A stretch of DNA of 64,000 nucleotides from Candidatus Latescibacterota bacterium (GTDB lineage: Bacteria > Latescibacterota > UBA2968 > GCA-2709665). The position numbers and the translations under genes were made by a program. Below the pieces are notes generated by a model. That model did not search any database, was not told the origin of the DNA, and saw only the letters and a program-made list of their open reading frames with translations. The stretch lies in the NCBI GenBank assembly GCA_965222075.1, contig OZ244937.1:2656001-2720000 (forward strand). Direction: 5' to 3'. Numbering within the stretch: position 1 is the stretch's first letter; every line of letters starts with the position of its first letter. This document shows positions 7,767-56,824 of this stretch, one piece after another.

Positions 7767-8618
7767 TCAGGTCCTTAATCCGCACCTGTCCTGTGAATAG
7801 GCAGCCAGCCCACGGCAAACCTGTTCGAACTGCTCCATAGAGATGGCTTCCGGACGCAGAAGCGGGTCTACCCCCGCTCCTGAAAATACCCTGGCCAGAA
7901 CGTCCTCCTGGCCGTCAACCAGGCTCAAAAGCGTATTCTTGAGCATCTTCCGGCGCTGCTGGAAGGCCGTTCGAACCACCCGGAAGAAAACCCTTTCGTC
8001 TTCAACCCGCACCGGCGGCTCAGAGGTAAAATCCAGCCTGAGGACCGACGAATGGACCTTGGGGACGGGCGTAAAACGCTCGGGCGGAAGGTCAAAAAGC
8101 CACTCCGGGCGTGTCCGAAGCTGCACGGCGATCGACAAAATACCGTAGTCCTTCCCCCCCGGCAGCGCCGTCATTCGTCGGGCAACCTCCCGCTGGACGG
8201 TCAGAACCGCCCGTGTCAACACCGCTCGAGCATCCAGAATCTGTTCCACCACGGCGCCCGTAACCTGATACGGGAGGTTGCCCACCAGCACCGCACGCTC
8301 AAACCTCTCGCTTTGGACCAGCTCTGGAAAATTGACCTTCAACACGTCGCAATTTAAAATCGACAGATCGCCTCGGCGCCCACAGGCCTGCTGCAACAAC
8401 GTGCAAAGAGAAGGGTCCAGCTCGATCCCCACAACCCGCGACGCCACCTCCAGCAGCGGCCCCGTCAGCGCCCCCCGTCCCGGTCCGATCTCCACAACCA
8501 GGTCGTCCGCCCCCACACGGGCCGCTTCCACAATCCGGCTTACTGCAACAGGATCGATTAAGAAGTGCTGGCCCAGCCGTTTTGCGGCCCTTATCCTGCG
8601 CGTTCGGGCCACCATCAC
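7767..8618 (-). CDS. rsmA: 16S rRNA adenine dimethyltransferase
   Basis: KRLGQHFL, VEIGPGRGALT, GNLPY, FTPVPKVHS. Confidence 0.96.
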   Translation of the reverse strand: MMVARTRRIRAAKRLGQHFLIDPVAVSRIVEAARVGADDLVVEIGPGRGALTGPLLEVASRVVGIELDPSLCTLLQQACGRRGDLSILNCDVLKVNFPELVQSERFERAVLVGNLPYQVTGAVVEQILDARAVLTRAVLTVQREVARRMTALPGGKDYGILSIAVQLRTRPEWLFDLPPERFTPVPKVHSSVLRLDFTSEPPVRVEDERVFFRVVRTAFQQRRKMLKNTLLSLVDGQEDVLARVFSGAGVDPLLRPEAISMEQFEQVCRGLAAYSQDRCGLRT

Positions 8619-9385
8619 CTGCCCGGCAGCCTGAAGAGCCGGAGGGCGTTCTGCGTCGTCCGCTCAAACAACCGCTCCATCGGCACGCCCTCCTCTTGTG
8701 CAAGGCGTTGGGCCACGCACCGCACATAGGCCGGTTCGTTCCGGCGTCCCCGGTGCGGCACCGGCGCCAGATAGGGACAGTCGGTTTCCAGAACCAGCCG
8801 GTCTGGCGGCACCTGTAGGGCCACGGGCAGAGACGACGACTTTTTAAAGGTCACCGTCCCGCCAAACCCCAAGTAGAAATTGAGGCCCACGCCGCGTTTT
8901 GCCTGCTCCAGATCGCCCCCAAAGCAGTGCAGCACGCCGCCAACCTCGTCGGCCCGCTCCACCTCTAAGAGGTCCAGCACCCTCTCTTCGGCCCCGCGGC
9001 TGTGCACCACCAGCGGCAGACCCGTCTCCCTGGCCAGGCGGATGTGCCGTCTGAAGACCCGCTCCTGCACTTCGCGGGGCGCATAGTCCCGAAAAAAATC
9101 GAGCCCCGTCTCCCCTACCCCCACCACCTTCTCGTGTAACAGCAGGCCCGGAAGCTCTGTTAAAGACCGCTCCTCCACCTTCTCAACACCGTGCGGGTGA
9201 AACCCCGCCGTAGCATAGACCCCCTCCTGCCCCTGCGCCAGCGCCGCCGCCCGCCGGCTCACCTCCAGGGTTGTGCCCACATTCACAATCCGTGTGACCC
9301 CCGCCTTCCGGGCATTTTGAATCACCCCATCCCGGTCTTTTGAAAACTGGGGGGAATTCAGATGGGCATGCGTATCGACAAGCAT
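8615..9385 (-). CDS. TatD family hydrolase
   Basis: DTHAHL, GETGLD, VLHCF, ETDCPYLAP..RGRRNEP. Confidence 0.95.
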   Translation of the reverse strand: MLVDTHAHLNSPQFSKDRDGVIQNARKAGVTRIVNVGTTLEVSRRAAALAQGQEGVYATAGFHPHGVEKVEERSLTELPGLLLHEKVVGVGETGLDFFRDYAPREVQERVFRRHIRLARETGLPLVVHSRGAEERVLDLLEVERADEVGGVLHCFGGDLEQAKRGVGLNFYLGFGGTVTFKKSSSLPVALQVPPDRLVLETDCPYLAPVPHRGRRNEPAYVRCVAQRLAQEEGVPMERLFERTTQNALRLFRLPGR

Positions 9386-11450: not shown

Positions 11451-12512
11451 CTATGCGTACTGTCTCACCTGCCGCCAGAGAGAGACCAGTCCCAGGTGAA
11501 AGTTGACATTTCGGTTGTTCATCTCCCGGAGAGCTTCTACCCTGCCAACCGTCTGCTGCAACCGCTCTGTGTCAAACGCCTCCGACAACCGTTCAATATC
11601 GCGCAAACGCGTCCGATGCGAAACCCGATCGGCGTCTCCGTTTCGATAAATCAGAATATCCCGCAGCCAGACTACCGCGCCTCCCAACACATGCAGCCCC
11701 TTCTGCCGGTCTGAAGCCAGCTGCTCCAGCGCCGTATACGTCTTGAACTCCTCTCCCCAGATCAGGGCTTCTAAAAACCGGTACGCCCGATCCTGTACAT
11801 CTTCCACCTCCGTATCGGCCATCTCCCGGGCCCGCCGGAGGTTGCCCCCGCACGAGCGCGCAATAAACCAGGCGTGATCGGCGCCAAGGCCCATTTGTGC
11901 GATTAGCGTCTCCGCCACGTCCCGGATGGAAAGGGGCGAAAACGTCTGGACCTGGCATCGGGACACAACTGTAGGCAGCAGGACCTCGGAACTGGGTGCG
12001 GTCAGGATCAGCACAGACCGATCCGGCGGTTCCTCTAAGGTCTTAAGCAGGGCATTGGAGGCCTCGGGACGCATGTGGTCCGCATGAAGAATGACGGCCG
12101 TTCGCCATGCGCCTTCAAAGGCTCCATAAGAGAACTGCTTCTGGAGCTCCCGGATCCGATCCACGGAAATGGTCGCGGTCGCCTCCGGCAGCGAATAACC
12201 GTAGGGGTCCTGCATCACCTCCTGCAAGATCCCCCGCTGGACATCTTGTATGGTACGTGCAGAAAAGGGAAACAGCAGCGACAAATCGGCGTGGTTCAAA
12301 GCCGCCGTTTTTCGACATCCCCTGCAGGTTCCACACGTCCCCTCCGCCCCTTGTTCGCAGTGCAGCGTCCGGGCCATCTCTAAGGCGGCTGCACCCCCCC
12401 CCGTCCCGGCGGGTCCGACAAACAGGAGGGCATGGGGAATCCGACCGGTTTGGATAAGCCGCTTGAGAAAGACAACGGCCCGCCTCTGACCTACCACGCA
12501 CGAATCAAACAT
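11451..12512 (-). CDS. holB: DNA polymerase III delta-prime subunit
   Basis: HALLFVGPAGTG, Zn-binding Cys cluster, ASNALLKTLEEP, TVVSRC. Confidence 0.9.
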   Translation of the reverse strand: MFDSCVVGQRRAVVFLKRLIQTGRIPHALLFVGPAGTGGGAAALEMARTLHCEQGAEGTCGTCRGCRKTAALNHADLSLLFPFSARTIQDVQRGILQEVMQDPYGYSLPEATATISVDRIRELQKQFSYGAFEGAWRTAVILHADHMRPEASNALLKTLEEPPDRSVLILTAPSSEVLLPTVVSRCQVQTFSPLSIRDVAETLIAQMGLGADHAWFIARSCGGNLRRAREMADTEVEDVQDRAYRFLEALIWGEEFKTYTALEQLASDRQKGLHVLGGAVVWLRDILIYRNGDADRVSHRTRLRDIERLSEAFDTERLQQTVGRVEALREMNNRNVNFHLGLVSLWRQVRQYA

Positions 12513-34834: not shown

Positions 34835-37132
34835 CTACCGGCCGGCCACCTTGGCCACCCAGATGCTGATCTCGTACAGCACGATCAGAGGGAGCGCCAT
34901 CATCAGCTGAGAAACCGGATCCGGCGGCGTCAGCAGGGCCGCCAGAACAAAACCGACCACAACGGCATAACGCCGGCCTGTCCGCATCCTCTCCGGTGTT
35001 ACCACGCCTACCCTGGCCAGAAAAAAGGTCGCCACCGGCAGTTCGAACACCACGCCGAAAGCCACCAGCAGCTTCAGCACAAAATCGGTATAAAACCCGA
35101 TATCATATTGAGGCTCAACCCCCGTCTCCACCCCAAGACCCAGCAGAAACCTCAGCGCAAGCGGTATGACTCCCCAGTAGGCCAGAGCGGAACCGACCAC
35201 AAAACAAACGGTCGATGAGAAAACGATAAAAGCCACATACTTTCGTTCGCTGGCGAACAGCCCAGGCGCCACAAAAAGCCAGACCTGGTAGAGCAAAACC
35301 GGCAGGGCCAGCACCGCTCCGCCCCACAGGGCGATCTCCAGCTTGACCATAAACATCCCCATCGGTTTCAGGTAGATCAATGTCGGGCCGGCCTCCATCT
35401 GCTGTACCGGCCACGTCAATGCCCTGAGAATGTCATTGGAAAAAACCGCACAGATAATCGCCCCCACCACCACCGCCGCCAGCCCTTTTAGAATCCGCCA
35501 TCGCAGTTCCTCCAGGTGATCCAGGAACGGCATGGAACGTTCTTCTTCTGGAAGCTCTGGATCAGCTTCCGCGCCCATCGACACGCTTCCCGCCGCCGAC
35601 CTGGGCAAAATGGTCTGTTCTTCCACCTCCCCACCCTTCCGGCGGACAGCCATGACCACCACCAGAACCGCCAGCCCGGTGCAGATCTGGGAGAAGACAT
35701 CCCCGTATCGGGTATAAAATGTGAGGTCCGACCTGACGGCCACCCTGCCGTTTAAAACCTCCGGGTGAAAAATCCCCGTCGTCCGGGACTTTCGCCCGTA
35801 CGCATCGATGAACGTTGAGACCCCGGTATTGGCGCAGCGCACCACGGCCCGCCGGTTCTCAATCGCCCGAAACACCGCAATTTCGGCATGCTGGAAAGGC
35901 CCCGATGTCTTGCCGAACCAGCCGTCGTTGGTAATCACCACCAGAAACCTGGCGCCTCCGGCCACGAACTCTCGAACCAGCCCCGGAAAGGCCGAATCGA
36001 AACAGATCAGCCCGGAAAACCGCGCCCCCGGCCCCTCAAAAACCGTCCGCACCTCCCCAGAATCCCAGTTGCCGCCCACATACCCGCCGCCGGTGAACTG
36101 CATATCGCGCAAAAAGGGAAGCAGTTCTGGAAACGGGGACCGTTCGCCGAACGGCACCAGTTTGGTTTTGTCGTAATATCCAACCGTCCCCCTCCCGGGC
36201 GCAAAAAGAAAAGACGAGTTATAGGTCCGGATACGCGCGTCCTCTACCCTGCGATAGGCGCCGGTGTAGAGATATACGTTCAGCGAATCGACCAGCGTCT
36301 GTACGCCCTCCTGGTAGGGCCGGTAAGCCTCCTTGTTGACGTAGAAGGCAGCAGCCGTCTCCGGCCACACCACCAGACGCGCGCCCCCCTCTACCGCCTG
36401 AACCGTCAGTGATTTTAAAATCTCGAAATTGTCCCAGAACCCGCCGTACTCCTTTGCAACAGGCGGAATATCCGGCTGCACCACACCCACGGGAATGGTC
36501 TCACCTTCATCAGCCCGGGCAAATGCCATATACCCCTGGACCGCCGGCGCGGCAAAAAGCAGGACCAGCACCACAACGGAAGCGCTCCGGCGCACGCGGG
36601 GGCGCAGGAGCGCCAGCACCGTCAGGTTGACCAGAACGACCCAGAAAGACACCCCGTAGACCCCGGTGAGTTCCGCGTACTGAATCAGCGGCAGGTAGGC
36701 CGTCTGGCTGTTGCCCAGCACCACCCACGGGAATCCCAGGTCTCCCAGTGAGTTGAAATACTCAAACCCCACCCACAAAAAAGGGGCGCTCCATAAGCCG
36801 AACGCCTCGAACCGGCGAACCACAAGGCTAAGCGCCCAGATGGAAAGCCCTCTGAAAACGGACATATAAAAAATCGCCGCGGCCGTGCCGGGAGGGGAAA
36901 TCCAGGAAATCCAGTAAATCGTTGCACCGTAAAAAACCAGCCCCTGCACAAACCCGGCGCCAAAAGCCGCTCGGCCCTGCAACCGCTCGGCCGAGAGGAA
37001 AAGGGGAATTAACCCGACACAGGCAAGAAACCCAAGCGGCAGCGGTGGAAACGCAGCCCCCAGAACGATTCCCGAGATTGCCGGATAGACCAGGAGGGGC
37101 AGCAAGATCCTCCCTTTCCACACCTCCACCAT
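34835..37132 (-). CDS. Fusion of apolipoprotein N-acyltransferase (Lnt) and Tat translocase TatC
   Basis: One ORF: Lnt triad motifs WPET, YDK..LVPFGE, ICFD and RCANTGVS, then TatC motifs MPFLDHLEELR, W.FVAPGL...E, FELP, TPPDP.SQ. Confidence 0.92.
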   Translation of the reverse strand: MVEVWKGRILLPLLVYPAISGIVLGAAFPPLPLGFLACVGLIPLFLSAERLQGRAAFGAGFVQGLVFYGATIYWISWISPPGTAAAIFYMSVFRGLSIWALSLVVRRFEAFGLWSAPFLWVGFEYFNSLGDLGFPWVVLGNSQTAYLPLIQYAELTGVYGVSFWVVLVNLTVLALLRPRVRRSASVVVLVLLFAAPAVQGYMAFARADEGETIPVGVVQPDIPPVAKEYGGFWDNFEILKSLTVQAVEGGARLVVWPETAAAFYVNKEAYRPYQEGVQTLVDSLNVYLYTGAYRRVEDARIRTYNSSFLFAPGRGTVGYYDKTKLVPFGERSPFPELLPFLRDMQFTGGGYVGGNWDSGEVRTVFEGPGARFSGLICFDSAFPGLVREFVAGGARFLVVITNDGWFGKTSGPFQHAEIAVFRAIENRRAVVRCANTGVSTFIDAYGRKSRTTGIFHPEVLNGRVAVRSDLTFYTRYGDVFSQICTGLAVLVVVMAVRRKGGEVEEQTILPRSAAGSVSMGAEADPELPEEERSMPFLDHLEELRWRILKGLAAVVVGAIICAVFSNDILRALTWPVQQMEAGPTLIYLKPMGMFMVKLEIALWGGAVLALPVLLYQVWLFVAPGLFASERKYVAFIVFSSTVCFVVGSALAYWGVIPLALRFLLGLGVETGVEPQYDIGFYTDFVLKLLVAFGVVFELPVATFFLARVGVVTPERMRTGRRYAVVVGFVLAALLTPPDPVSQLMMALPLIVLYEISIWVAKVAGR

Positions 37133-37133
37133 G

Positions 37134-37424
37134 CTACCTCCCTCCTGCAATAATCCCTTTTTGCACGAGTAGATCGGTGTAGTCTTCAGCAGACATATTA
37201 CCGCGCCGAGCCTGTTCAAATTCGGCTCTGGTCATAAAAAGTTGCCGTCTAAGGATATGGGCAAGGAGCGCATCACCGATATCGGATGAACCTCCATGTG
37301 AAATCCTGGTGCGAACAAGACGCCCAGGAAAGACACGTTCAAAGAAGATATGATGGCTGCCTCGGACTTCGGTAAAACCGAGACCGAGCAGAATAGATCG
37401 GAGGTTGCGTTTAGCGATGGGCAT
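37134..37424 (-). CDS. HicA-like toxin (putative)
   Basis: 96 aa with the LGF...RGSHH.F...T.ISHG..DIG..LL..I.RQL pattern of the dsRBD-like HicA fold. Confidence 0.65.
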   Translation of the reverse strand: MPIAKRNLRSILLGLGFTEVRGSHHIFFERVFPGRLVRTRISHGGSSDIGDALLAHILRRQLFMTRAEFEQARRGNMSAEDYTDLLVQKGIIAGGR

Positions 37425-37794
37425 CGCCGAAAAGATTTTCCAACCTGTGGAGTTGTCCTGTCAGATGTTGATTTAACAGATCCCTTCTTTTGAAAAGGTA
37501 GGCGTAATCATCTTCGATCGTGCGTAGAAGATTCACCTTGGCCTGTTCTAAGTCAGACCCTTCGGCCGCCAGATCGGTATCGGGAAGCAATGCGAGAATA
37601 TCTCCGTTAGCAAAAACCTGAATCTCAACGGGGACCTCCACGCCGGCAACGGGGAGCATATCTTTGAAAACCAGGACCGGTTGGGGTTCATCATCTTGTA
37701 GGTACCGGTCCAGCCACGCTGCCAAATCCTCTTTGGTATGAGCCTTTTTCCAGACCTCTGCGGGAAAAACAACCACAGGTTTTTCTTTTGCCAT
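37411..37794 (-). CDS. HicB-like antitoxin (putative)
   Basis: A.LPDTDL.AEG.DLEQA..NL pattern of the HicB partial RNase H fold; overlaps the toxin by 14 nt. Confidence 0.55.
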   Translation of the reverse strand: MAKEKPVVVFPAEVWKKAHTKEDLAAWLDRYLQDDEPQPVLVFKDMLPVAGVEVPVEIQVFANGDILALLPDTDLAAEGSDLEQAKVNLLRTIEDDYAYLFKRRDLLNQHLTGQLHRLENLFGDAHR

Positions 37795-52101: not shown

Positions 52102-52923
52102 TTACCCGAACCGTCCGGTCACATAATCTTCGGTCTGCTTCAACCTGGGGTTGGTAAATATCTCCTCCGTCCAGGCGTACTCGACGAGCCGCCCCAGGTA
52201 GAAAAATGCCGTAAGATCGGATACCCGCGACGCCTGCTGAAGGTTGTGTGTCACAATCACAATCGTATACTGTTTTTTCAGTTCCTCAATCGTCTCTTCA
52301 ATCCGCCCCGTTGCGATCGGATCCAGTGCCGAACAGGGCTCATCCATCAATATCACCGACGGCTCCACCGCTATCGCCCGCGCAATGCACAGCCGCTGCT
52401 GCTGCCCGCCCGACAGACCCAGTGCGCCCTCATCCAGCCTCTCCTTTACCTCGTCCCACAGCGCCGCCGCGCGCAAGCTCCGCTCGGCCGATTCGTCCAG
52501 CACAGACCGCCGGTTCTCCCCGGCGATCCGAAGCCCATAAATCACGTTTTCATAGATCGACTTCGGAAACGGGTTCGACTTCTGGAACACCATCCCAACC
52601 CGGCGCCGGAGGGAAATCACATCGTAGTCCGACCCGTAAATGTCCTCCCCGGCAATCCTCACCATGCCCTCAATCCGAACCGAATCGATCAGATCGTTCA
52701 GCCGGTTCATGCACCGCAGCAGGGTCGATTTCCCGCATCCCGACGGCCCGATAAGCGCCGTCACCCGGTACTCGGGTACCTGCAGGTCGATATCAAACAG
52801 CGCCTGGGTCTCTCCATAGTGCAGGTTCAGGCCTTCCACCTCCACAATCGGTCGCTCCACAACGGGCGCATCCACCTGAACCTGATCGTCGTCTGTCCTC
52901 TCCACCTGCGCAGCCATCGCCAT
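52102..52923 (-). CDS. pstB: Phosphate ABC transporter ATPase
   Basis: [38 protein letters not shown]; AGGAG SD. Confidence 0.97.
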
Positions 52924-52943
52924 TGTGCTCCTTAGAAGCTGAT

Positions 52944-54557
52944 TTAAAACCCGACCTTTGCAAACCGCTTCCGTAAACGGCCGCGGACCAGGATCGCAGT
53001 CAGATTCAGGGCCAGAACAATAGCCACCAGCAGCAGCGTGGTCGTATAGACCATCGGCCGGGCCGCCTCCACGTTGGGCGACTGGAACCCCACATCGTAG
53101 ATGTGAAACCCTAAGTGCATAAACTTCCGGTCTAAGTGGAAAAACGGCCAGTGCCCGTCCAGCGGCAGCGACGGCGCCAGCTTGACCACCCCCGTAATCA
53201 TCAGTGGGGCCACCTCTCCCGCCCCGCGCGCGATCACCAGGATCATCCCCGTCAAAATGCCCGGTAGCGCGCCGGGTAGCAGCACACGCCAGATTGTCTG
53301 AAACTTCGTCGCCCCAAGCGCCAGCGACCCCTCCCGCACCTCGCCGGGCACGGCCGCCAGCGCCTCCTCTGCGGCCACAATCATCACCGGCACCGTCAAA
53401 AGCGCCAGGGTCAGCGACGCCCAGAAGATCCCCCCTGTGCCGAACGTCGGCGTCGGCAGCGCCTCCGGATAGAACAGCTGGTCGATGCTCCCCCCCACCC
53501 CGTATACGAAGAAACCGAGCCCGAACATCCCAAACACAATCGAAGGCACCCCTGCCAGATTGTTCACTGCAATCCGGACCACCCGCACCAGCGGCCCCTG
53601 CCTGGCGTACTCCCGCAGGTAAAGCGCCGCCAGTACCCCGAAGGGCACAGCCGCTAAGCTCATCAGAAACACCATCATCACCGTCCCGAAGATCGCCGGG
53701 AAAACTCCGCCCTCCGTGTTCGACTCCCTCGGCTCGTCCGCCAAGAACTCCCACACCCGGGAGAAGTAGACCTTCAGCTTCCCTGTCGTGCCCAGCCGGT
53801 TGGGACGGTAGGCCCGGACGATATCGGCCACGGCCACCCGCCGCACCTCCCCTCCGGCCAGGGCGACCTCCACCTGGTAGGTCTCACCCTCTGCACGCAG
53901 CCGGGACAGCTTCTGGGCCAGGCGCTCGTAGCGTGTCCAGTACTGCCGGTTCTCTTCGTCTAAGCGTTCGATCTCCGCCTCTCCGCGCCCGGCCAGTTCC
54001 AGCCTGCGCTTCTCCAACCGGAGTTGCTCGATCCGGCGGTTCAGGTTTCCGATGGCGTCCTCCTCGATCTCCCGGATCTGCGCCCGGATCCGTCCGGTCA
54101 CCCGCAGCCCCCCCTGCATGGCGGCCCACCCGACTTCAGGCCCCTCGGCCAGGATCTGCTCACCCTCGTACACCCCCCGGAGAAACCCGAACATCTGGCC
54201 CCATTCGCGCCGTTCAAAGATCACCGCATTGCGCGGGGTTTCACGCGCTTCAATCCGGTCCTCGTCGATCCACCGGAAATCGTCCCCGTACACATCCCGG
54301 TTGCCCACCTTGACCTGCGTTCGATATTCGGCCTGAGCCTTCCCGTCCTGCGTCGGGATCTCCTGCCGGTCCCACACCTGGCCCATCATAGCCGTTCCGT
54401 CCGCCAGGCCGAAGGCCACCAGATTGCCCGGCCAGAAAAACCCGAGCCCGTTGTAGACCACCACCCCCACCAAGCCCGCGACCATCAACAGACAGAAGGC
54501 AAGCGCCCCGCCGGTAAGCCAGATAAACGGCTCACCCGATCTCCAGAACCTGTTCAT
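52944..54557 (-). CDS. pstA: Phosphate ABC permease PstA, long form
   Basis: [32 protein letters not shown]; large periplasmic insert. Confidence 0.95.
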
Positions 54558-56824
54558 ATCCGACTGTACCTCTCCCGCAGCCGCTGCCGAACAATCTCGG
54601 CCGCGGTATTCACCAGAAACGTCACACCCGCCAGCAGCAGGCCGGTCAAAAACAGCACCCGGTAGAGCGTGCCCTCGTGGGGAGCCTCTGGAATCTCCAC
54701 TGCAATATTTGCCGACAGCGTACGCATCCCGTTGAAGATGCTCCAGTCCATAATCGGGGTATTCCCCGTCGCCATCAGCACAATCATCGTCTCCCCCACC
54801 GCCCGTCCAAAGCCGATCATCGCCGCTGAAAAGATCCCGGGGCTGGCCGTGGGCAGCACCACCCGCAGCGCCGTCTGCCAGGGCGTGGCCCCCAGCGCAA
54901 GCGACCCGCCCCGCAGGTGGGACGGCACGCTTGAAAGCGCATCCTCGCAGATCGTATAGATAATCGGCACCACCGCGAACCCCATCGCAAACCCCACCAC
55001 CAAGCAGTTGCGCTGATCGTAGCGGGTGTCCGACGTCTGCATCAGCCAGCGCTGGAAATTTCCGCCGAAAAGGGCGCGCTCCACCTCCGGTCCCAGCACA
55101 AAGGCGAGCCAGGCCGCCAGCGCCGTCACCGGCACCAGGAGATAGATCTCCCCCTGGTCGGGCAGCCAGCGCACGGCCCGCCTGGGAAGCCGTTTAAAGA
55201 CCCAGGCGGCCAGCACCACCACCGCCGGCACGGCCGGAAACAGGAGCAGCGCGCCCACGGCCCCCCGTTCCAGGAGGGGAGCCATCCAGAGCCCGGCCAA
55301 GAACCCTAAGATCACACTGGGCAGCGAAGCCATCAACTCCACCGTCGGCTTTACCGCGTTCCGGATCTCCGGACGAGCGAACTCCGACGTGTAGATAGCG
55401 GCCAGAACCGCTAAAGGCAGAGCGAACAGCATCGCATAAAACGTCCCCTTGGCCGTACCGAAGGCCAGCGGAACGATGCCCAGCTTCGGCTCGAATTCGT
55501 CCGTCCCGCCCGTGGACTGCCACACGTGCGCCGGTCCTTCATACCCCTCGTACCAGACCTCGCCGAAGAGCGTCTTCAGCGTCACCTCCGGGTGCGGATT
55601 GTGCAGGCGGTAGTGCACCAGCCGCCCGCCTCCGTCTAATCCCAAAAACCCGTCGGCCTTGGGGGCAAAGACCACTGCCGAAATTCCGGCCCCGCCCGCA
55701 GACATCCGGAAGAAGGTCTGTTCCGAAGTCATGTGGTGCAGCGCCAGGTTCCCCTCCGTATCCCCCGTCAAAAACTGTTTGTCCCGCTCGGACGGGGCGA
55801 TCGCCGTCACCGCCCCCTGGTGGGGCTCAAACGCGTGGATCTTTTGATATCCCTGAAAACCGGGACGCCCCGACTGCCGCACCGGAAACCAGGTGCTCAC
55901 CCGCCCCGCCCCATCTCCCACCGCCACCGACACATCCCCCAAGAGGAACTCAAGCGCCGTAATCGCCTGCCCTTCCTCAGCCGCCTGGAAGCGCTGCGTC
56001 CGCTGTGGACGCGTTGGGGGGTCGGAAACATCAAAGCGGAAGATCTCACCCCGGTCCGTCCCTGCCAGCACAGTCTGCCCGCGCCCGTCGGTCAACACCG
56101 CTGTCGGACGTCCCGCGATATCTTCCGTCAGATCGTATACAAACACCTCCCGTCTGCCGCCTCCCAGCAGCCCCCGCTTCTGCACAACCGCCGCGGTCAC
56201 CAGCCGCCCCGAAGCCGTGACCCCAACCACCGTCGCCCGCCTCGCCCCGTCGTTCCGGTAAGCCACCCTCACAACCGCCTCGCCCCCACCGTCCAGCCGG
56301 ACCTCCCCCTCAACGGACAGCTCCGGCGTCACGATTCGCTCGCCTCCCGTGTAGCCTACCGAAAAGGTCACCCGAGCCGCAACCACGCTCCCCTCGTCGG
56401 TTCCCAGCCCCAGGTACCCGTCCACAGGAGACCGGTAGACCGAAACGATCCGGCGTCCGGCAAGCGCCTCGGGCCGTTCCTGCCGGAGCACCGCCCCGCT
56501 TGCCAGATCGACAAAATCGATCCCCTCCGCACGCACCACGTAGCCCACCTCCCGATAGGGACCGGCGCCCACGGCCAGGGCCTGCCCGCCGCCGGAGGCG
56601 TCCCACGTCCCGACCGCTTCGGCCTCCGGACTCAGGAAAAGCGGATAGGCCTCCCGCAGCACAAACACAAAAATTCCCAGCACCACCGCAATCACCCCGA
56701 TCCCGCCCACCGCAATCACCCACCGCCCTACCCGGTCCATCAGCCGTGCGGTCGGCGTGATCCCCGGCAGCGACCGAATCTCTGCATTCAGATCGGTCTT
56801 CTCTTCAACGTCGGGATGTGCCAT
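54554..56824 (-). CDS. pstC: Phosphate ABC permease PstC, long form with a beta-propeller-like domain
   Basis: KPTVELMASLPSV, SLALGATPWQT, GRAVGETM; WD40-like repeats upstream. Confidence 0.93.
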   Translation of the reverse strand: MAHPDVEEKTDLNAEIRSLPGITPTARLMDRVGRWVIAVGGIGVIAVVLGIFVFVLREAYPLFLSPEAEAVGTWDASGGGQALAVGAGPYREVGYVVRAEGIDFVDLASGAVLRQERPEALAGRRIVSVYRSPVDGYLGLGTDEGSVVAARVTFSVGYTGGERIVTPELSVEGEVRLDGGGEAVVRVAYRNDGARRATVVGVTASGRLVTAAVVQKRGLLGGGRREVFVYDLTEDIAGRPTAVLTDGRGQTVLAGTDRGEIFRFDVSDPPTRPQRTQRFQAAEEGQAITALEFLLGDVSVAVGDGAGRVSTWFPVRQSGRPGFQGYQKIHAFEPHQGAVTAIAPSERDKQFLTGDTEGNLALHHMTSEQTFFRMSAGGAGISAVVFAPKADGFLGLDGGGRLVHYRLHNPHPEVTLKTLFGEVWYEGYEGPAHVWQSTGGTDEFEPKLGIVPLAFGTAKGTFYAMLFALPLAVLAAIYTSEFARPEIRNAVKPTVELMASLPSVILGFLAGLWMAPLLERGAVGALLLFPAVPAVVVLAAWVFKRLPRRAVRWLPDQGEIYLLVPVTALAAWLAFVLGPEVERALFGGNFQRWLMQTSDTRYDQRNCLVVGFAMGFAVVPIIYTICEDALSSVPSHLRGGSLALGATPWQTALRVVLPTASPGIFSAAMIGFGRAVGETMIVLMATGNTPIMDWSIFNGMRTLSANIAVEIPEAPHEGTLYRVLFLTGLLLAGVTFLVNTAAEIVRQRLRERYSRI

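Follow-up and report, generated by a model that had tools for sequence, protein, structure and literature searches.

Apolipoprotein N-acyltransferase (Lnt) and TatC, the receptor for signal peptides in the twin-arginine translocase (Tat), are both well studied and are normally separate proteins. Here we describe a gene, lnt-tatC, that would encode the two as a single polypeptide. It lies in a stretch of 64,000 nucleotides (nt) from Candidatus Latescibacterota bacterium (GenBank assembly GCA_965222075.1, contig OZ244937.1, positions 2,656,001 to 2,720,000 of the forward strand), which was analysed as a whole and is hereafter called the window. Related loci and proteins are referred to by our own L and P numbers where they need to be told apart.

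Two described systems come closest. In mycobacteria, the polyprenol-monophosphomannose (Ppm) synthase domain is soluble and cytoplasmic. The sections of PMC3850990 available to us describe mycobacterial Ppm1 (Mycobacterium tuberculosis Rv2051c / BCG_2070c) as an Lnt carrying this domain at its C-terminus, and the Lnt/Ppm pair as two adjacent genes in M. smegmatis (MSMEG_3860/3859) and Corynebacterium glutamicum (ppm2/ppm1). On that description, Ppm1 is the closest precedent for the layout seen here, with a partner placed on the cytoplasmic C-terminus of Lnt and a split pair in relatives. Its partner is a Ppm synthase tied to lipoprotein glycosylation, however, whereas here it is a six-helix membrane subunit of a translocase; a Pfam search found no Ppm-like domain in the fusion protein, and the likeness is one of layout only. 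The second system is a haloarchaeal TatC with 14 transmembrane helices (TatCt). In the part of the review PMC13673990 open to us, it is presented as two TatC units in one chain with both twin-arginine sites probably inactive. Like the protein described here, TatCt as presented there is a natural fusion that places TatC in a larger polytopic membrane protein, and among the sources accessible to us it is the only TatC fusion that we found described. The lnt-tatC product differs from it in having one TatC stretch (Pfam), intact binding residues and an unrelated enzyme as its partner.

For a fusion of Lnt with TatC, we found no published description in a search that left subscription-only literature and domain-architecture databases outside, and an earlier, preliminary description of this locus likewise knew of none. 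The available portions of three reviews, PMC13673990 and PMC9360617 among them, mention Lnt and TatC separately at most. Lnt-TatC, apparently undescribed, combines two known families in a new domain architecture and is not a new kind of system.

The gene occupies a minus-strand open frame running from 37219 to 34835 which, from the ATG at 37132, translates into 765 amino acids (aa) without a stop (protein P0001), as both the list of open reading frames (ORFs) and the translation show. Two database proteins, P0002 and P0003, match this product over its full length, at 99% and 83% identity, respectively. The start at 37132 is preceded by a strong Shine-Dalgarno (SD) sequence, AGGAGGGAGG, and the 3′ end of the 16S rRNA of this genome carries the canonical anti-SD sequence CCTCC. 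The N-termini of relatives agree with the same start. The positions of all features are collected in Table 1.

The N-terminal module is a complete Lnt, in which a membrane domain is followed by a periplasmic nitrilase-like domain and a final transmembrane helix. It scores 346.2 bits with the NCBIfam lnt model TIGR00546, against a curated equivalog cut-off of 132.9, and aligns over its whole length to Escherichia coli Lnt at about 25-27% identity. The motifs WPE (E258), YDK/YxK..LVPFGE (K322) and ICF (C377) match their counterparts in the E. coli enzyme, whose catalytic triad is formed by E267, K335 and C387, and all 109 aligned full-length fusions keep E258, K322 and C377 unchanged. Taken from an AlphaFold2 (AF2) model of the whole protein, the Lnt module superposes on 8aq3, 5vrg and 6nwr with target TM-scores of 0.82-0.86 (E ~1e-23). 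In domain order, in the positions of Glu, Lys and Cys and in fold, it thus resembles the stand-alone Lnt of E. coli and Pseudomonas aeruginosa (5N6H, 5VRG, 8AQ3); it departs from them where its C-terminus runs into a linker and a whole TatC. We predict from these features that the Lnt half is catalytically competent and has N-acyltransferase activity.

The C-terminal module is a complete TatC. Residues 538-748 match the Pfam TatC family (PF00902) over model positions 1-208 of 208 (E 1.7e-71), and the half scores 221 bits with NCBIfam tatC (TIGR00945), whose curated equivalog cut-off is 132.7. It opens at M534 (codon 35531-35533) with the conserved MPFLDHLEELRW, M534 pairing with the first residue of chain 4b4a_A (Aquifex TatC) in the alignment. 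The model shows the six-helix TatC fold, with target TM-scores of 0.89 to 4b4a and 0.80 to 9dzz_A within a range of 0.77-0.89 for solved TatC structures. Residues E542, F620 and E629 align with E15, F94 and E103 of E. coli TatC (9dzz_A), of which E15 is a residue that binds the twin-arginine motif. F94 and E103 are named as key residues for binding this motif in the available text of a 2026 review (PMC13673990). Across the 109 fusions, F620 and E629 never vary, and conservation of E542 is 90% or higher. The likeness to stand-alone TatC from Aquifex aeolicus (4B4A/4HTS) and from the cryo-electron microscopy structure of E. coli TatBC (9DZZ) begins at residue 1, at about 38-40% identity; unlike in those proteins, the N-terminus is not free, its acidic tail being continuous with Lnt. 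The only other Pfam match in the fusion protein, DUF7534, falls inside TatC and is sub-threshold (19.6 bits against a cut-off of 28.4). The TatC half looks functional, and its activity as a translocase receptor is predicted on that basis.

Between the two modules, the sequence RRK follows the last Lnt helix (...MAVRRKGG) and leads into a linker of 34 aa with a net charge of -7 and three Pro residues. The C-terminus of Lnt and the N-terminus of TatC are both cytoplasmic, so that the join needs no change of topology in either half. Among fusions, linkers are 16-99 aa long and rich in Pro, Glu, Ala and Asp, and 117 of 119 carry a net negative charge, as do 67 of 76 TatC tails in split forms. Comparing 1114 pairs of fusions whose TatC halves share 80-97% identity, we found a mean identity of 0.42 for the linker against 0.87 for Lnt and 0.92 for TatC, and the linker lengths were unequal in 1030 of these pairs. 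Such a pattern, with the composition kept and the sequence not, is characteristic of an acidic spacer that is disordered.

Structure models give a similar picture. The AF2 model of the window protein, built on a 109-row alignment, has a mean predicted local distance difference test (pLDDT) score of 83 and is confident for both modules; a second model was made of P0103, a relative with a 16-aa linker (72 rows). In both, the linker has a pLDDT below 50 (residues 500-534 in the window protein), and no confident fixed interface between Lnt and TatC was seen in either. The predicted TM-scores (pTM), 0.67 for the window protein and 0.61 for P0103, are about what the confident Lnt module alone would be expected to yield, and in these models they would argue neither for nor against a fixed interface. 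A structure comparison of the model returned no solved chain covering both Lnt and TatC. Taken together, the domain matches, the motif alignment with E. coli, the single frame and the superposition of both halves on solved structures bear out, in all details open to checking, the preliminary description, which had read the gene as an intact Lnt with its E/K/C triad, followed by RRK and an acidic, Pro-containing linker of about 35 aa and joined without a stop to a complete TatC starting at 35533. They also agree with its view that the fusion is topologically compatible, the linker standing after a positive stretch and before the cytoplasmic N-terminal helix of TatC.

The architecture recurs in many relatives, within a narrow phylogenetic range. 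A word-indexed search over 5.8 billion protein clusters yielded 109 clusters with all three Pfam domains among its 120 best matches, together with 4 that are truncated at the N-terminus (CN_hydrolase plus TatC) and 7 with Lnt alone; a single Lnt-TatC chain is therefore present in 113 of these 120, as confirmed with custom hidden Markov models of both halves. The fused clusters were drawn from several independent sources (NCBI, ENA, JGI and Logan), and where a source is named it is a Latescibacteria or Gemmatimonadetes metagenome-assembled genome (MAG). The named proteins themselves are labelled just "apolipoprotein N-acyltransferase" or "hypothetical protein". We also ran HMMER exhaustively against 1.84 billion cluster representatives (clusters at 50% identity) and considered the best 150 matches, down to 255 bits at rank 150. 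Exactly two of these matches are full-length fusions (P0025 and P0102), matching the two clades described below, and the others are Lnt-only chains or fragments, apart from one TatC alone (P0396). Since a further fused lineage would far exceed 255 bits, the fusion is confined to two clades at this resolution: clade A, which includes the window protein and shares 55-99% identity with it, and clade B, at ~40-44%. Of 80 related loci drawn from a set of contigs with one genome per species, in which the best match is 66% identical (the window's own genome lies outside it), 11 have the fusion as a single ORF (L001-L010 and L014). By their titles, nine belong to Candidatus Latescibacterota, one to Gemmatimonadota and one to an uncultured bacterium. 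Latescibacterota sit in the FCB group in the NCBI taxonomy.

In four close relatives, the two genes are adjacent but separate, each pair with a boundary typical of translational coupling. In L011 and L012, the lnt stop codon TGA is followed after 3 nt by the tatC start, ATG in L011 and TTG in L012, the latter preceded by AGAGGA; in L013, the tatC ATG precedes the stop codon of lnt by 17 nt, and in L016 the two genes share an ATGA overlap. All four of these TatC proteins begin with Met and a tail of 15-30 residues before the same MPFLDHLEELRW, and this tail is acidic in L011, L013 and L016. Because the split TatCs carry such a tail in front of the same residues, we take the linker of the fusion to be the N-terminal TatC tail of the split form. 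A further arrangement is seen in L015, a chromosome-level Latescibacterota MAG, where lnt ends at 11533, the tatC ORF runs from 13242, and a transposase gene of the IS110 insertion sequence (IS) family naturally disrupts the unit between them.

Many stand-alone TatCs came up when short relatives of TatC were searched for. To place fused and split forms relative to each other, we used a FastTree phylogeny of 324 TatC domains rooted on Desulfobacterota loci, leaving out 2 truncated TatCs and 7 Lnt-only proteins. Clade A (support 98) holds 75 rows, 67 fused and 8 short; clade B (support 100) holds 137 rows, 63 of them fused and 67 short, along with the split and IS-interrupted loci. The 8 short rows in clade A include at least two truncated fusions as well as one pair (P0138, P0141) that is truly split. 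In clade B, the 67 stand-alone TatCs have Met-initiated acidic tails, mostly of 16-77 aa, before the same MPFLDHLEELRW. By parsimony, the root of the whole tree is unfused; clade B requires four changes, meaning that fusion took place there independently three or more times, and in clade A the root is fused, with one reversion. The tree of the Lnt half (276 rows) is congruent with this. There, the Lnt-only protein P0060 occupies the position that its presumed partner P0138 holds on the TatC tree; P0060 stops just past the last helix, and P0138 opens with an acidic tail of 23 aa. On the Lnt tree, L016 falls between groups of fused forms, and L011 is sister to the large fused group. On the strength of the aligned sequences, these data indicate that an ancestral coupled lnt-tatC pair became fused independently three or more times and reverted once. 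The fusion has not been stable in evolution.

The order lnt then tatC, fused or translationally coupled, is conserved in clades A and B and rare elsewhere: among 64 other loci, lnt lies within 10 kb of tatC in three (L019, L020 and L078), and in one of these the genes are directly adjacent and divergent. Each clade keeps a neighbourhood of its own, an aminotransferase gene, lnt-tatC, a Na/Ca exchanger gene, rmlB, rmlC and UvrA in clade A, and RadC plus a bifunctional-nuclease gene upstream in clade B, and nothing among these conserved neighbours is tied to export or lipoproteins. None of the 63 ORFs in the window that reach 70 aa matches the TatA/B family, a search that is weak for very small ORFs, and neither does any of the 147 ORFs lying up to 6 kb from the unit in 12 related loci. 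A TatA motif had one match in the window, without a TatA-like hydrophobic N-terminus, and none once a hydrophobicity filter was applied; among related loci it recovered tatA in L070 only. Within the 64-kb window, and with the same weakness for very small ORFs, the Pfam and motif scans agree with the earlier remark that tatA and tatB are not nearby. Genes for lgt and lspA were likewise absent from the 63 window ORFs and from the 147 ORFs around the unit in the 12 loci.

Lnt and TatC are both promiscuous in fusions. Four proteins of ~680 aa (P0125, P0126, P0128 and P0131, one of them named KSB1) join TatC (residues 19-228) to quinolinate synthase NadA (339-673), and we found no published description of this fusion either. 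As in Lnt-TatC, TatC is joined in one ORF to another gene product in related phyla; the partner, however, lies C-terminal of TatC and is an enzyme of cofactor biosynthesis without an obvious link to export. A further probable case is a TatC-containing ORF of 686 aa, in the same length class, in a Caldithrix locus (L023:9956-12013). On the Lnt side, a set of distant homologs (P0276, P0323, P0328, P0279 and P0304) includes PAP2 plus Lnt, Lnt plus SNase and Lnt plus LEA_2, as well as Lnt extended at its C-terminus by ~340-360 aa without any match in Pfam.

The reading that we consider probable is that the gene encodes one 765-aa bifunctional polypeptide of the inner membrane, in which two autonomous modules are tethered and which arose from a coupled gene pair. 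Loss of the boundary between translationally coupled lnt and tatC would have produced the fusion and turned the former acidic tail of TatC into a cytoplasmic, disordered tether of ~34 aa joining the two modules. Each module would do its ordinary job, and the covalent link would mainly ensure that the two are made together at 1:1 and sit together in the membrane. The fusion would be tolerated because both joined termini are cytoplasmic, and the link is unlikely to be mechanistically required, since close relatives work with the two-gene form. Both activities, and the purpose of the linkage, are predictions. Some observations weigh against this reading. The large trees are FastTree phylogenies only, with polytomies treated approximately in the parsimony count, and adjacency of separate lnt and tatC genes was confirmed in four split loci and one IS-interrupted locus only, the short TatCs being proteins without genomic context. 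That the full-length polypeptide would be produced is read from the gene. In addition, the fused state is long-lived in clade A, where it has persisted through many in-frame linker lengths, and this could reflect positive selection for physical coupling, not neutral tolerance.

Two further points of this kind concern the junction itself and belong to a different explanation, in which the conserved internal ATG (35531-35533) would also yield free TatC, or the linker would be cleaved, and the translocase would use the free form. All 109 fusions have a Met where TatC begins, encoded by ATG in 17 of 17 loci, possibly reflecting a retained internal start. The corresponding residue of E. coli TatC is Gln; in unfused relatives belonging to other phyla, this Met is near the beginning of the open frame and probably serves as the start codon; and TatC is a separate chain in the split relatives. 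However, the split TatCs whose start lies 16-77 codons upstream retain the very same Met, so its conservation needs no role as a start codon. The second point is that the mRNA is unusually open at the internal ATG in three closely related clade B loci (L008:11576, L009:11507 and L014:11441), where a 61-nt window folds with -6 to -9 kcal/mol as compared with ~-18 kcal/mol in the ORF and where 0-2% of control windows are as weak, which would fit a residual or active internal start restricted to that subclade. Around the internal ATG of the window gene, the folding energy (-17.1 kcal/mol) is close to the mean of the ORF (-18.0), and 38% of controls are as weak or weaker. An open mRNA at this site was accordingly discarded as a signal for the window and for clade A, where it is ordinary.

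Ribosome binding at the internal ATG was considered as well. An SD sequence formed from Glu and Gly codons of the linker was rejected as a candidate: SD-like 4-mers precede the internal ATG in just 2 of 12 fused loci, near the background of 16%, as compared with 10 of 29 ordinary gene starts in the window. The internal ATG of the window gene lacks an SD sequence, while the fusion start has a strong one. Moreover, if free TatC alone mattered, linker indels that shift the frame would be expected to be common, yet 67 of the 75 rows in clade A are fused, across 24 linker lengths. We therefore consider a second product improbable, and internal initiation of TatC is not supported for the window by its sequence features. 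The preliminary description had named separate translation of TatC as an observation that would speak against the fusion; such translation is seen in the split relatives, and the window itself bears no sign of it.

An alternative to mere tethering is functional channelling, in which Lnt would be held at the Tat translocon and would N-acylate folded Tat lipoproteins on the spot, in a lineage that relies strongly on such lipoproteins. Physical coupling of Tat lipoprotein export to N-acylation had been the proposal of the preliminary description. It would fit with the conserved linkage of lnt and tatC in two deep clades, with two modules that both look active as judged from their residues, with the clade A rows that stay fused, and with the recognition of Tat-exported lipoproteins as "Class II Tat substrates" in the part of PMC13673990 accessible to us. 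In lipoprotein maturation, as outlined in the available sections of PMC3850990 and PMC9360617, Lgt and LspA act first and Lnt third, and neither of the genes for the earlier enzymes accompanies the unit. The link has also been made and broken repeatedly on both the TatC and the Lnt tree, the linker is disordered and of widely varying length, the pTM values of the two models give no evidence of a fixed interface, and TatC is also fused to an unrelated cytoplasmic enzyme, NadA, in KSB1-type bacteria. Given this interchange of fused and split forms, together with the variable linker, the lack of nearby lgt and lspA and the TatC-NadA proteins, coupling of export to acylation is not supported, and we think channelling unlikely.

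A crude regular expression for Tat-lipoprotein-like signal peptides was uninformative, with one match in 368 kb of linked loci and two in 935 kb of others; for twin-arginine signal peptides in the window, a similarly crude expression gave none, in too little sequence for the count to carry weight. The one candidate in the 368 kb of linked loci is an ORF at L008:14278-14997, 2 kb downstream of the fusion, which has no Pfam match and a Tat-lipoprotein-like N-terminus (RRR, a hydrophobic stretch and a lipobox Cys).

A bolder idea, to which we would give little credence at present, is that Lnt serves as an accessory of the Tat translocon in Latescibacterota-type bacteria, the acidic tail or tether of TatC recruiting Lnt so that folded lipoproteins exported by Tat would have their triacylation completed at the exit site. 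If so, the repeated fusions would represent selection tightening an existing Lnt-TatC complex, and this would be the first known direct link from a protein translocase to a lipoprotein-modifying enzyme.

Finally, an assembly or sequencing error that lost a stop or shifted the frame between two ordinary genes, or a pseudogene, can be rejected as highly improbable: although a stop or a frame change interrupts the junction in some relatives (L011, L012, L013 and L016), most relatives are fused, contrary to the preliminary description's provision that a stop or frameshift in all close relatives would undo the fusion, and the open junction recurs in 113 of the best 120 clusters from several independent sources and in 11 independent assemblies, chromosome-level records among them, with linkers that vary in length and sequence and are always in frame, and with P0002 99% identical over its full length.

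Returning to the window, two small ORFs directly precede the fusion gene. The proximal one is HicA-like, with a match under the gathering score, and its TAG stop codon (37134-37136) ends 1 nt before the lnt-tatC ATG. Neither ORF occurs at this position in the relatives examined, and together they may represent an insertion of a HicAB-type toxin-antitoxin module.

Table 1. Positions of the lnt-tatC gene, its parts and adjoining features (window coordinates), with the transposase gene of locus L015
Feature	Position	Strand	Details
Whole lnt-tatC fusion gene	34835..37132	-	765 codons plus stop codon 34835-34837
Shine-Dalgarno sequence AGGAGGGAGG	37137..37146	-	4 nt 5′ of ATG 37132; inside the 3′ end of the HicA-like ORF
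LNT_N membrane domain, residues 20-170	36623..37075	-	Pfam PF20154, 5.9e-32; helices in AF2 model
CN_hydrolase (nitrilase-like) catalytic domain, residues 215-447	35792..36490	-	Pfam PF00795, 5.6e-29
Predicted Lnt catalytic codons	E258 36359-36361; K322 36167-36169; C377 36002-36004	-	
Last Lnt transmembrane helix, residues 479-497	35642..35698	-	AF2 helix; aligns with the C-terminal helix of E. coli Lnt
Linker, residues 500-533	35534..35635	-	Acidic, Pro-containing, predicted disordered; pLDDT <50
Complete TatC, residues 534-765, starting with conserved MPFLDHLEELRW	34838..35533	-	Pfam and TIGR00945
TatC twin-arginine-motif residues	E542 35507-35509; F620 35273-35275; E629 35246-35248	-	
HicA-like ORF directly upstream	37134-37424	-	Pfam HicA 1.9e-5, under gathering score
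Distal small ORF upstream, overlapping the HicA-like ORF	37411-37794	-	No Pfam match
IS110-family transposase gene between lnt and tatC	L015:11995-13230	-	Transposase_20 2e-22; DEDD_Tnp_IS110 7e-13

Elsewhere in the window, the sole other gene with "Tat" in its name encodes a TatD-family DNase (8615-9385, minus strand; Pfam 1.1e-81); TatD is not a known component of the translocase. A complete rRNA operon lies at 20165-25408 on the minus strand, with 16S at 23850-25408, 23S at 20362-23393, 5S at 20165-20281 and two spacer tRNAs at 23557-23629 and 23660-23733; a further tRNA is encoded at 28466-28539 on the plus strand. In a pstS-pstC/A-pstB-phoU cluster, two minus-strand ORFs (52102-53754 and 54554-56824) are far longer than their family matches, PstB matching residues 304-550 of a 550-aa ORF and the best PstC stretch residues 528-748 of a 756-aa ORF, in which a second stretch was not located. 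These long ORFs may have been called too long, or may represent additional fusions or extensions involving membrane-transport genes.

For annotation, the lnt-tatC fusion poses a practical problem. As the proteins are named for Lnt or called hypothetical, and their annotation does not carry the TatC name, surveys of the Tat system would miss tatC in these genomes. At the same time, the fused, split and IS-interrupted forms among close relatives constitute a natural experiment on the tethering of an enzyme to a translocase. If the link is merely tolerated, it would illustrate cleanly how neighbouring genes for membrane proteins can repeatedly fuse and split by way of overlapping stop and start codons, as is possible when the joined termini share one side of the membrane. 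More broadly, the conserved coupling or fusion of lnt and tatC hints that, in a little-known and mostly uncultured phylum, Tat export is co-ordinated with the maturation of lipoproteins.

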